Shown here piece after piece: positions 2,065-2,926 of a stretch of 4,895 bases of DNA; within the stretch, counting starts at the first letter, position 1; the number at the start of each line of letters is the position of its first letter. A program made the position numbers and the translations under genes. The stretch lies in the IMG/VR virus record IMGVR_UViG_2571042621_000030, one strand, 5' to 3'. The notes beneath the pieces are model-generated. The model saw only the letters and a program-made list of their open reading frames with translations. It was not told where the DNA came from and ran no database searches. Origin of the DNA: a virus (Duplodnaviria; Heunggongvirae; Uroviricota; Caudoviricetes).

Positions 2065-2648
2065 CCATTTCTACAAAAAAGCCTCTTTATGCTGAGGTTC
2101 ACAATGTTCCTGATGATTATGAGTTCACTGACGAGGAACTAAACAGAATTATTGCAGGTGATATGTTCACTCCTCGTCAGGCCGCAATAATGGCACGGGA
2201 GATACAGAAACTCCGCGCCGCCATGCTTCATGGTGCCGAACCTGTAAGCCAAACTTACAAGTCACAACATACGCAGTTTGAACAAGTTGCTGACCTCTAC
2301 GAAATGCAATTTGATGACGGTCGCACTTGTGCCTTTCACACTGATGCGCAAAAGGCTGCGCAATGGCTTCAGGCATGCGACGGAAACAGGGTTCAGGAAT
2401 ACGTGAAGCTGGAGCGATTGCGTAATGCGCTATCGGGCAACTCTCCGGTAACTCCGGATGGTTGGATATGCTGTAGTGAGCGAATGCCGGATAAGTTAAT
2501 TCCGGTAATGGTCATGTATGAAGACGGTGAGATGTGGTCTGCAATGTGGAATGGCAATCGCTGGGATGATGGCACCGAATATCCGGATCCGCACTCAGTT
2601 ACGCACTGGCGTGAAATGCCAGCAGCACCGCAGCAGGAGGTGAAGTGA
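2061..2648 (+). CDS. Phage protein with a C-terminal DUF551-like domain (195 aa)
   Basis: ATG 2061 overlaps the upstream stop; GGAGG at 2046-2050. The C-terminal about 60 aa (DGWICCSERMPD...W..MW.GNRWDDG...VTHWREMPAAP) has the Trp/Cys-rich pattern I associate with Pfam DUF551, common in lambdoid early regions. Domain assignment is from memory. Confidence 0.6.
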   Translation: MTISTKKPLYAEVHNVPDDYEFTDEELNRIIAGDMFTPRQAAIMAREIQKLRAAMLHGAEPVSQTYKSQHTQFEQVADLYEMQFDDGRTCAFHTDAQKAAQWLQACDGNRVQEYVKLERLRNALSGNSPVTPDGWICCSERMPDKLIPVMVMYEDGEMWSAMWNGNRWDDGTEYPDPHSVTHWREMPAAPQQEVK

Positions 2649-2926
2649 TGGACTCCTTCGCGAAATATACGATTATTGACTGGATAGCATTCCTTCAGGT
2701 TTTGCTCATCTGGTTTTATATGGCTTACAGGAGTGGGCAGTGGATTGTCAGTGTAGCCTGTAGCAAGGGATGGCGTTGGTGGAACCGAAAGAATAAAAAA
2801 GCGCTGGCCTTGGATTCGTTTTACGAAGCATTCAATCTTAACAGTCTTCAGCCTGGTTATGTCATTGTAGTCACCACTCAAAGCGGCATGACCATTCAGA
2901 TTCATAAACCAAAAGAGGAAAAATGA
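2648..2926 (+). CDS. Small predicted membrane protein, 92 aa: one N-terminal hydrophobic helix followed by a basic Trp-rich stretch
   Basis: RBS AGGAGG (2634-2639) 8 nt upstream of ATG 2648, which overlaps the upstream TGA (TGATG). The hydrophobic segment YTIIDWIAFLQVLLIWFYMAY is followed by WRWWNRKNKK (positive-inside). The tracked ORF begins at GTG 2645, but ATG 2648 is better placed. Confidence 0.5.
   Translation: MDSFAKYTIIDWIAFLQVLLIWFYMAYRSGQWIVSVACSKGWRWWNRKNKKALALDSFYEAFNLNSLQPGYVIVVTTQSGMTIQIHKPKEEK

Follow-up and report, generated by a model that had tools for sequence, protein, structure and literature searches.

Within the window, the 4,895-nucleotide stretch of viral DNA analyzed here, a compact set of plus-strand features surrounds a small open reading frame (ORF 2648-2926) that begins with the ATG at 2648 and encodes a product of 92 aa; an alternative in-frame GTG at 2645 would give a 93-aa protein. 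The ORF lies between a gene whose product ends in a DUF551 domain and the xis and int genes, upstream of both and on the same strand, and it overlaps a Cys-rich micro-ORF, with which it forms a block that two terminator-like hairpins bring to an end (Table 1). Its product belongs to DUF4752, a family that is already catalogued.

Table 1. Coordinates of the DUF4752 gene, its protein segments and the adjoining features in the window.
Feature	Position	Strand	Basis or detail
Upstream gene, 195 aa, with C-terminal DUF551	2061..2648	+	Pfam PF04448, E 3.3e-17, residues 134-191
Translation-initiation block CAGGAGGTGAAGTGATG	2634..2650	+	AGGAGG 2635-2640; upstream stop TGA 2646-2648; start ATG 2648-2650
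DUF4752 family gene, 92 aa (coordinates include the stop codon)	2648..2926	+	Pfam PF15944; phrog_667; dN/dS 0.06-0.2
Predicted transmembrane helix, residues 7-27 (YTIIDWIAFLQVLLIWFYMAY)	2666..2728	+	Hydropathy, family conservation, AlphaFold2
Basic Trp-rich membrane-proximal segment, residues 28-52 (RSGQ, WIVSVAC, SKGWRWWNRKNKKA), net charge +7	2729..2803	+	Charge count
Predicted small soluble domain, residues 53-92: helix ~50-61, then beta-hairpin 72-76/82-86	2804..2923	+	AlphaFold2, conservation, phrog_16281
Cys-rich micro-ORF, 29 aa (MMWPICVNCGRMCLSGWCRKCDKCTKKRQ)	2923..3012	+	HK106 gp30 annotation
Two tandem terminator-like hairpins with T-rich tails	3014..3065 (3014-3035, 3046-3065)	+	Consensus scan; end the block of DUF4752 gene and micro-ORF

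The match to Pfam PF15944 (DUF4752) scores 121.7 bits against a curated gathering threshold of 27 (E 1.4e-35) and spans residues 8-91, which correspond to profile positions 2-84 of 84; likewise, residues 1-92 align with positions 1-91 of the 94 in phrog_667 (E 7.6e-38), a profile in the category ‘unknown function’. ‘DUF4752 family protein’ is the existing annotation of HK106 gp31 and of RefSeq E. coli copies, and the DNA of the gene is 100% identical to that of Stx1a-converting phages. The preliminary description of this DNA had not recognized the family. HK106 gp31, ST104 ORF7, SPN1S_0050 and D6 orf94, all of them DUF4752/phrog_667 proteins, are full-length homologues with a like length, layout and phage or prophage setting. 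An exhaustive profile search yielded 46 representatives, with full-length members of 82-100 aa, and alignments show that even diverged members match in architecture: a hydrophobic N-terminal helix, a basic segment, a Y.AF helix, a PG and a TT.G hairpin. One 1151-aa protein (P0052) was discarded as a spurious relative; it is a repeat protein that matches the basic segment only.

The setting of the family is phage and prophage DNA in Enterobacteriaceae, comprising 69 phage records and 186 IMG/VR stretches together with prophage contexts. Complete E. coli genomes carry the gene in 548 of 5426 cases (~10%), and a profile scan of genome contigs returned two DUF4752 loci only. All but one of the 80 viral copies from IMG/VR loci are intact, and some phage records and prophages hold frameshifted or truncated copies, which indicates that the gene is dispensable. 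Our literature search found no paper naming DUF4752 or PF15944 and nothing relevant on transmembrane proteins of the exo-xis region or on small membrane proteins of lambdoid phages; the DUF551 literature deals with Ea22 and YfdS, not with the DUF4752 gene. The ORF is thus a real, conserved member of a phage family that is catalogued but unstudied.

The coding strand is clear from the pattern of substitutions. The preliminary description had proposed a small protein of 92 aa and named an overlapping minus-strand frame (2393-2905) as the one that might be expressed instead; the purifying selection acting on the plus frame (Table 1) bears out the former, and across 83 close loci the three codon positions of the plus frame hold 9, 5 and 35 variable sites. 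The minus-strand ORF is a codon-in-register antisense frame of 170 aa, and it is open here only because TTA, CTA and TCA codons are absent. It is still open in an Enterobacter soli prophage (L008) and in the near-identical copies of HK106 and Dewey, but contains 1-5 stops in six of seven diverged homologues, and therefore the plus frame is the gene. That the minus-strand ORF could be the real gene and the plus frame a by-product, an idea that has 170 open codons in its favor, can practically be dismissed given these stops, substitutions that track plus-frame codon positions, and the fact that this ORF covers two plus-strand genes, each with a Pfam match.

The protein had been described as having a hydrophobic stretch near its N-terminus, then WRWWNRKNKK and a soluble tail of 45 aa. 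The hydrophobic stretch is present (Y7-Y27) and conserved in the family, and WRWWNRKNKK occupies residues 42-51; the tail beyond it measures 41 aa rather than 45. Between the hydrophobic stretch and the Trp/Arg motif lie 14 residues, made up of RSGQ, a second short hydrophobic run (W32-C38) and SKG. The Kyte-Doolittle (KD) maximum over 19 residues is 1.78 (residues 8-26; the classical threshold is 1.6) and the Wimley-White (WW) octanol sum for the segment is -13.2 kcal/mol, values reached by 4.8% and 2.5% of composition-preserving shuffles, respectively. The position-independent Hessa sum is borderline at +2.8 kcal/mol, owing to D11 and Q17 within the segment. As a control, all other ORFs of the window were scored, the antisense one included, and none rises above a KD of 1.32 or falls below a WW of -1.9.

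The same arrangement recurs throughout the family. Thirty DUF4752 members with 18-97% identity keep the hydrophobic segment (median KD 19-residue maximum, 1.77); the N-flank of the helix is neutral or acidic in these members (median charge -1), and the 25 residues that follow the segment carry a charge of +3 to +7 in 30/30. In the close subfamily, D11, W12, I21, W22, F23 and M25 are invariant, as are residues G41-R47, and W32 is conserved in 87% of members; in distant members, the Trp/Arg segment is replaced by QWDKRRKxxRRQK. The helical hydrophobic moment over residues 37-47 reaches 0.73. In the AlphaFold2 model, residues 4-45 form a single long, isolated helix, with a pLDDT of 80-89 over residues 11-40.

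The hydrophobic helix near the N-terminus, conserved and followed directly by a strongly basic segment, fits the single-pass anchor that had been suggested, and the protein is very probably held in the inner membrane by this one helix. Because the N-flank is neutral or acidic and the post-helix region carries +3 to +7, the positive-inside rule predicts an N-out/C-in topology in which the C-terminal domain would be cytoplasmic, a prediction drawn from sequence statistics. A signal peptide or SAR domain was considered and rejected by inference, given an h-region that is too long, the lack of an AxA site and a charge bias in the wrong direction. It is also conceivable that the protein is not in the membrane at all and that the hydrophobic helix forms the core of a soluble coiled-coil oligomer; such a view could draw on the positive Hessa-type sum with its two polar residues, and on the AlphaFold2 model, in which one continuous helix appears and no separate membrane helix. 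We consider it highly improbable, however, as the hydrophobic run of 19-21 residues lies above both the KD and the WW thresholds, its aromatic flanks and one-sided charge bias are conserved family-wide, and no heptad-like polar pattern is evident.

Beyond the basic segment, AlphaFold2 places a small domain whose secondary structure is identical in two runs, with a pLDDT of ~60. The model as a whole has a mean pLDDT of 68 and a pTM of 0.32, and a deeper alignment brought no gain (pLDDT 68.2 vs 68.4). Most of the best-conserved positions of the family fall in this domain (A54, 97%; A61, 83%; G70, 80%; T77, 87%), and a match to phrog_16281 is limited to it. A sequence profile search of the PDB gave chance matches only (E >= 0.69) and Foldseek against the PDB gave a meaningless best E of 3.1; Foldseek against BFVD found unnamed proteins only, one a 40-aa fragment with 94% identity and one with 23% identity.

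The start of the gene is embedded in the end of its neighbor: its Shine-Dalgarno box sits in the last codons of the upstream gene (QEVK), and the stop of one overlaps the start of the other. Both elements are kept in 80/80 related IMG/VR viral loci, so that the translational coupling to the DUF551 gene noted in the preliminary description turns out to be general. The initiation block recurs with little variation in HK106, ST104, PA28, CUS-3 and mEp213, despite differing upstream genes, and is also present in the E. soli prophage, where the protein is ~65% identical; it is offset by one base in a diverged relative (L009) and absent from a Mu-like copy (L010). The upstream genes of HK106, Dewey, ST104 and CUS-3 likewise end in DUF551, and the motif W..P.P.P(P/Q)QE closes the upstream gene in ~67 of the 80 viral loci.

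Coupling on the downstream side, which had been claimed as well, holds for the 92-aa allele and not for the family. Here the stop of the DUF4752 gene (TGA, 2924-2926) overlaps the ATG of the micro-ORF (2923-2925) in an ATGA; the micro-ORF follows 46/48 copies of the 92-aa allele, but 0/31 copies of the 94-aa allele. Its variable sites are spread 9/10/11 by codon position, which is no coding signature. The micro-ORF is therefore an allele-linked neighbor and no obligatory partner of DUF4752. Of the two hairpins that follow, the first is conserved in sequence in HK106, Dewey and mEp213. A consensus scan of positions 1900-3700 found no sigma-70-like site, and Rfam gave no match anywhere in the window at E <= 1. 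Because the gene lies upstream of xis and int on their strand, with no promoter-like site of its own, it is probably a delayed-early product of the leftward (pL-type) transcript, a timing that is read from gene order only.

The lambdoid exo-xis region is one location of the gene among several. It is found just upstream of ninB in L009 and in yong1, immediately after the B gene in a Mu-like phage, and also in the P1-like phage D6, the epsilon15-like phage SPN1S and the Klebsiella phage Chronis; its carriers include Stx1- and Stx2-converting phages and the P22-like phages ST104 and CUS-3. DUF4752 is thus an accessory and mobile gene that moves among the early accessory regions of lambdoid, Mu-like, P1-like and epsilon15-like phages.

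What might such a protein do? The preliminary description offered exclusion, division inhibition or membrane depolarization as roles, and none of them gained support: the protein matches none of the PHROG, NCBIfam or PADLOC models that carry a functional annotation (none at E <= 0.1 in PADLOC-DB), and no solved structure by sequence or fold. We give about even chances to what is overall the best explanation, that DUF4752 is a single-pass inner-membrane protein, made early and coupled to DUF551, which acts as a membrane-tethered accessory effector. Translation is coupled to that of the DUF551 gene through the conserved Shine-Dalgarno and stop-start block; under this model, the six-residue N-terminus would be periplasmic, residues 7-27 would span the membrane and the Trp/Arg/Lys-rich residues 28-52 would lie at its cytoplasmic face, holding the 40-residue helix and beta-hairpin domain, probably as an oligomer, just under the membrane. 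During early lytic growth, it may bind a host target there, either within the inner membrane or at its surface. This last is the weakest step, and we infer it by analogy with other early-operon genes that modulate the host; the protein would not serve a core phage function. An accessory effector role is suggested because the helix and the soluble domain are both conserved and unrelated temperate phages carry the gene in early accessory regions, among which it hops.

Superinfection exclusion, in which the protein would keep incoming phages from getting their DNA into the cell, in the way of HK97 gp15 or T4 Imm, seems to us unlikely. Like DUF4752, HK97 gp15 is a small protein in which a short N-terminus leads into a single hydrophobic helix, and the soluble tail behind it opens with basic residues; residence in variable accessory regions together with movement between unrelated temperate phages fits a competitor-directed function. 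The two proteins are nevertheless unrelated in sequence (hhalign probability 2.9%, 16 columns), and no homology was found to annotated exclusion PHROGs or to PADLOC models. Their genes are also organized differently. The gene for gp15, a product of 62 aa labeled a moron product in its record, lies among tail genes by annotated putative terminators; the DUF4752 gene, in contrast, is internal to an early operon and translationally coupled, and a moron organization was not found, with no sigma-70-like site in the consensus scan. In temperate phages, it is usually the prophage that expresses exclusion genes, and a gene with no promoter of its own, coupled inside an early lytic operon, is poorly placed for this role.

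The conserved stop-start overlap could instead mean that the protein is a membrane tether or partner that recruits the upstream DUF551 protein, the pair being made in a fixed ratio. The overlap is present in 80/80 close loci, a C-terminal DUF551 motif closes most of the upstream genes (~67/80) even though these are otherwise diverse, and RefSeq pairs ‘DUF4752 | DUF551’ in most E. coli genomes among those listed. However, there is no upstream DUF551 gene in the distant members from SPN1S, Chronis, yong1, D6 and the Mu-like phage or in mEp213, and the common ...PPQEVK end may simply mark a recombination joint with the Shine-Dalgarno box in it. Such a partnership is improbable in our view.

We give still less credence to a membrane-damaging toxin or lysis-type protein, acting either as a depolarizing peptide or, like phiX174 E or prophage YdfD, by inhibiting an essential envelope enzyme. 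In size and layout the protein is near phiX174 E (91 aa vs 92 aa), in which a membrane helix at the N-terminus precedes a basic C-terminal region and which lyses the host through MraY inhibition; conserved polar residues (D11, Q17) lie within the helix, and truncated or frameshifted copies occur in some prophages. But there is no sequence relationship to E (hhalign probability 0.2%), and the DUF4752 gene lies outside any lysis cassette, with no linkage to lysis genes. The C-terminal part of E is dispensable and unstructured; in DUF4752, by contrast, the positions best conserved in the family mostly fall within the soluble domain, and a pore-forming peptide would not need a conserved soluble domain. 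The gene is, moreover, intact in 79/80 viral contigs and stable in ~10% of E. coli genomes, and the window contains no antitoxin-type RNA, nor any Rfam match.

Further candidates were rejected on similar grounds. Taking a holin to be encoded in a lysis cassette beside an endolysin, and a type I toxin to be a peptide of at most ~60 aa with an antisense RNA, we found neither here: there is no lysis cassette, the protein has 92 aa with a conserved soluble domain, and no Rfam match and no holin or toxin PHROG match was obtained. Mu Kil, a septation inhibitor, has its gene next after B in the phage Mu genome, and this kil slot is the one that the DUF4752 gene takes up in the Mu-like phage; unlike DUF4752, Kil has no hydrophobic helix and the two show no similarity (hhalign probability 0.2%). 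Mu Kil, phiX174 E and HK97 gp15 are thus all set aside as relatives.

A more far-reaching form of the membrane-tethered effector explanation, which we advance tentatively and hold to be somewhat doubtful, is that DUF4752 represents an undescribed class of single-pass inner-membrane phage effector, made early and in a fixed ratio with the DUF551 protein, that would use its conserved helix and small cytoplasmic domain to disable either a specific machine of the host inner membrane or the route by which competing phages bring their DNA into the cell.

The outcome is an annotation refinement of an ordinary gene family that was already catalogued, and not a discovery. Little is understood of the exo-xis and early accessory regions in which the gene lies, whose genes affect both the choice between lysis and lysogeny and the induction of Shiga-toxin phages. 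A membrane-anchored protein with its C-terminus predicted to face the cytoplasm and a conserved soluble domain narrows the choice of experiments on DUF4752 function. If the more far-reaching form of the effector explanation is true, the family would represent a widespread and so far unnoticed interaction between phage and host, given that Stx phages and ~10% of complete E. coli genomes carry the gene.

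The protein encoded by the DUF4752 ORF matches Pfam DUF4752 (PF15944) over its full length (121.7 bits; cut-off, 27), as well as phrog_667 (category, 'unknown function'); NCBIfam and PADLOC models gave zero matches. It is a member of an already catalogued family to which no function is assigned: the exact sequence is in GenBank, RefSeq already uses the label 'DUF4752 family protein' in HK106 (gp31) and on E. coli chromosomes, and a literature search for 'DUF4752' or 'PF15944' found no paper with either name. The gene has an accessory, mobile distribution. It is carried by 548 of 5426 complete E. 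coli genomes, and when 1.84 billion representatives were searched exhaustively with the profile, only 46 proteins came back at E ≤ 0.001, with full-length members spanning 82-100 aa. One entry, a 1151-aa protein with tandem repeats (P0052), was rejected as a relative; it is a low-complexity chance match, with 10 stretches that resemble the basic segment only (RFWSKKEAK versus RWWNRKNKK). The named sources (phages of E. coli, Salmonella, Klebsiella and Hafnia, and genomes of Enterobacter and Kosakonia) are all Enterobacteriaceae phages or prophages, save one contig binned into a Segatella MAG.

The gene is coding on the plus strand. Among 51 matched phage records, its DNA is 100% identical in two Stx1a-converting phages, 99.6% identical in phage H19J and 93-99% identical in the remaining 48, which include HK106, mEp213, ST104, CUS-3, Stx2 phages and BASEL temperate phages. 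By the Nei-Gojobori method, dN/dS is 0.06-0.09 among close copies and 0.09-0.22 against copies at ~65% protein identity, for which dS is near or beyond saturation; variable sites in the plus frame of 83 close loci divide 9/5/35 by codon position. The preliminary description had raised the possibility that an overlapping minus-strand ORF, which is codon-in-register with the plus gene, is expressed instead. The absence of TTA, CTA and TCA codons is all that keeps this ORF open here. Six of the seven diverged homologues interrupt it with 1-5 stops, the exception being the copy from Enterobacter soli (0), and it crosses two plus-strand genes, each with a Pfam match; these stops and this span rule it out as a real gene, and the plus frame stands. 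The H19J record (L003; AJ236875, 1999) has one extra base in its copy at 1851-2130 (TGGCTTAACAGG versus TGGCTTACAGG); whether real or an error of sequencing, this base breaks the frame, and so the gene is unannotated there. Two-piece matches to the gene also occur in Stx2 phage 86, phi315, phi296, GER2 and PhiR12_3.

The window corresponds to the early (exo-xis) part of the left arm of a lambdoid prophage. Its long ORFs are all plus-strand and lead into excisionase and integrase, the latter so named because it is nearly identical to that in the H19J record. A scan of 1900-3700 for sigma-70-like sites found none, and from the gene order we infer that the DUF4752 ORF is part of the leftward early transcript and is expressed early. 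Its ATG shares a base with the upstream stop (TGATG), and AGGAGG lies seven bases before the ATG; the codons CAG GAG GTG AAG TGA serve both as the upstream ...QEVK(stop) and as the Shine-Dalgarno box and stop-start overlap. All 80 IMG/VR loci (L018-L097) keep this 17-nt start block, as do HK106, ST104, PA28, CUS-3 and mEp213; it is also present in the Enterobacter soli prophage (~65% protein identity), is shifted one base in a diverged relative (L009) and is missing from a Mu-like copy. Because the block is kept, upstream proteins with no other relationship share the ...QEVK end, and the upstream genes of the 80 loci differ widely in sequence and length, with open frames of 71-412 codons into the start. 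As a mosaic joint, the block fixes the C-terminal end of the protein encoded next to it.

The translational coupling to an upstream DUF551 gene that had been proposed holds up well: the stop-start overlap occurs in all 80 loci, and the DUF551 C-terminal motif ends ~67 of the 80 upstream genes. DUF551 is Pfam-confirmed upstream in the window, Dewey, HK106, ST104 and CUS-3, and RefSeq-annotated in PA28. More distant DUF4752 members have no neighbouring DUF551 gene; they lie just 5′ of ninB, in P1-like phage D6, in epsilon15-like phage SPN1S, in a Klebsiella phage and after a Mu-like B gene. The last of these, a 65%-identical gene at 2868-3152 of a Mu-like phage contig (L010; ERR13998537_9447), sits directly 3′ of a transposition B-like gene, in the position of kil in Mu, although Mu Kil has no hydrophobic helix and is unrelated. 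The DUF4752 gene behaves as a self-contained mobile cassette.

Downstream, the 29-aa Cys-rich micro-ORF follows the 92-aa allele (end ...KPKEEK) in 46 of 48 loci and the 94-aa allele (end ...KPKEEGRG) in 0 of 31; an ASCH-domain gene lies 3′ of the latter in both annotated cases (ST104 and CUS-3). Upstream coupling is thus general and the micro-ORF link allele-specific, so the downstream coupling also proposed earlier is present for one allele only. Variable sites in the micro-ORF divide 9/10/11 by codon position, a pattern that does not support its translation, and its variants include Cys-to-Arg, Cys-to-Tyr and a frameshift. Terminator-like sites in the region number five, against 1.2 expected from shuffles, and the first hairpin is kept in HK106, Dewey and mEp213; the hairpins sit within an early transcript that is expected to be antiterminated.

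Features of the DUF4752 region and predicted elements of the protein
Feature	Position	Strand	Details
Minus-strand ORF	2393-2905	-	antisense frame
Start block	2634-2650	+	17 nt
DUF4752 ORF	2648 (ATG) to stop 2924-2926	+	92 aa: MDSFAKYTIIDWIAFLQVLLIWFYMAYRSGQWIVSVACSKGWRWWNRKNKKALALDSFYEAFNLNSLQPGYVIVVTTQSGMTIQIHKPKEEK
Micro-ORF	2923-3012	+	29 aa, MMWPICVNCGRMCLSGWCRKCDKCTKKRQ; six Cys, CxxC...C....C..C..C; annotated HK106 gp30
Tandem terminator-like hairpins	3014-3035, 3046-3065	+	T-rich tails; directly 3′ of micro-ORF
103-aa ORF	3072-3383	+	phrog_3680 ('unknown function'); CxxC...CxxC; weak ClpX-type C4 zinc-finger match, E 0.015, below Pfam cut-off
GC-rich hairpin	3576-3595	+	followed by TTTTATT; stronger; just 5′ of xis
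Excisionase	3626-3844	+	Pfam Exc, E 3.9e-41
Integrase	3822-4895	+	357 aa
Helix 1, solitary	residues ~4-45		AlphaFold2; pLDDT 80-89 over 11-40
Helix 2	residues 50-61		AlphaFold2
Beta-hairpin	residues 72-76 and 82-86		AlphaFold2; pLDDT ~60

The layout first described, a hydrophobic run (residues 7-27) followed by WRWWNRKNKK (residues 42-51) in a protein of 92 aa, is correct, except that the tail measures 41 aa and not 45. The 14 residues between helix and motif include a second short hydrophobic run, W32-C38. We built the membrane case on hydropathy scales, controls and conservation. The Kyte-Doolittle 19-residue maximum is 1.78 (residues 8-26; threshold, 1.6) and the Wimley-White octanol sum of the segment is -13.2 kcal/mol; the position-independent Hessa sum is a borderline +2.8 kcal/mol, owing to D11 and Q17 within the segment. 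Composition-preserving shuffles reached the observed values in 4.8% (Kyte-Doolittle) and 2.5% (Wimley-White) of cases, and the best values of all other ORFs in the window were only 1.32 and -1.9. Comparison across the family makes a stronger argument than these single-protein scales. In 30 members at 18-97% identity, the hydrophobic segment is kept (median Kyte-Doolittle maximum, 1.77), the short N-terminal flank has a median charge of -1 (maximum, +1), and all 30 have a charge of +3 to +7 over the 25 residues C-terminal to the segment. Under the established positive-inside rule, this asymmetry predicts a single-pass inner-membrane anchor with its N-terminus out and its C-terminus in.

Two AlphaFold2 runs, on alignments of 10 and of 30 sequences, agreed on the layout, with modest confidence for the whole model (pLDDT 68, pTM 0.32). 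GWRWWNR is invariant within the close subfamily and is replaced by QWDKRRKxxRRQK in distant members; the family-wide feature is thus a basic membrane-proximal collar and not a Trp cluster. The top-conserved positions (W32, A54, A61, F62, G70 and T77) show sequence-specific constraint on the interfacial region and soluble domain alike, a pattern that argues for a membrane-tethered binding domain over a mere hydrophobic peptide. Because the 40-residue soluble domain is too small to fold alone, we infer that it oligomerises.

As a best guess, and a tentative one, the protein may be a membrane-tethered accessory effector that, early in the lytic cycle, would bind some host target on the cytoplasmic side of the membrane, with a logic analogous to that of other early-operon host-modulating genes. 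A search of structural and sequence relatives found none of known function that would decide between this and its rivals. A role in superinfection exclusion like that of HK97 gp15 would fit the architecture, which the two proteins share, but they are not homologous and the DUF4752 gene has no promoter of its own by the consensus scan. A role as tether for a DUF551 partner draws on the strong linkage within the close subfamily, which is missing in distant members. Against a toxin or lysis-type protein stand the absence of homology to phiX174 E, a position outside any lysis cassette and prophage copies that are mostly intact. The last alternative, a soluble oligomer, is improbable given the conserved hydrophobic segment.

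The observation made in the preliminary description is confirmed, and its interpretation is partly supported. Added here are the exclusion of the antisense frame, family-wide support for a membrane anchor with its C-terminus in, a conserved coupling block at the start, and evidence that partnership with the micro-ORF is not obligatory. The gene is of modest importance and has no surprising feature; since the DUF4752 family is common in prophages of pathogenic E. coli, it would be reasonable to choose it for a small functional study.
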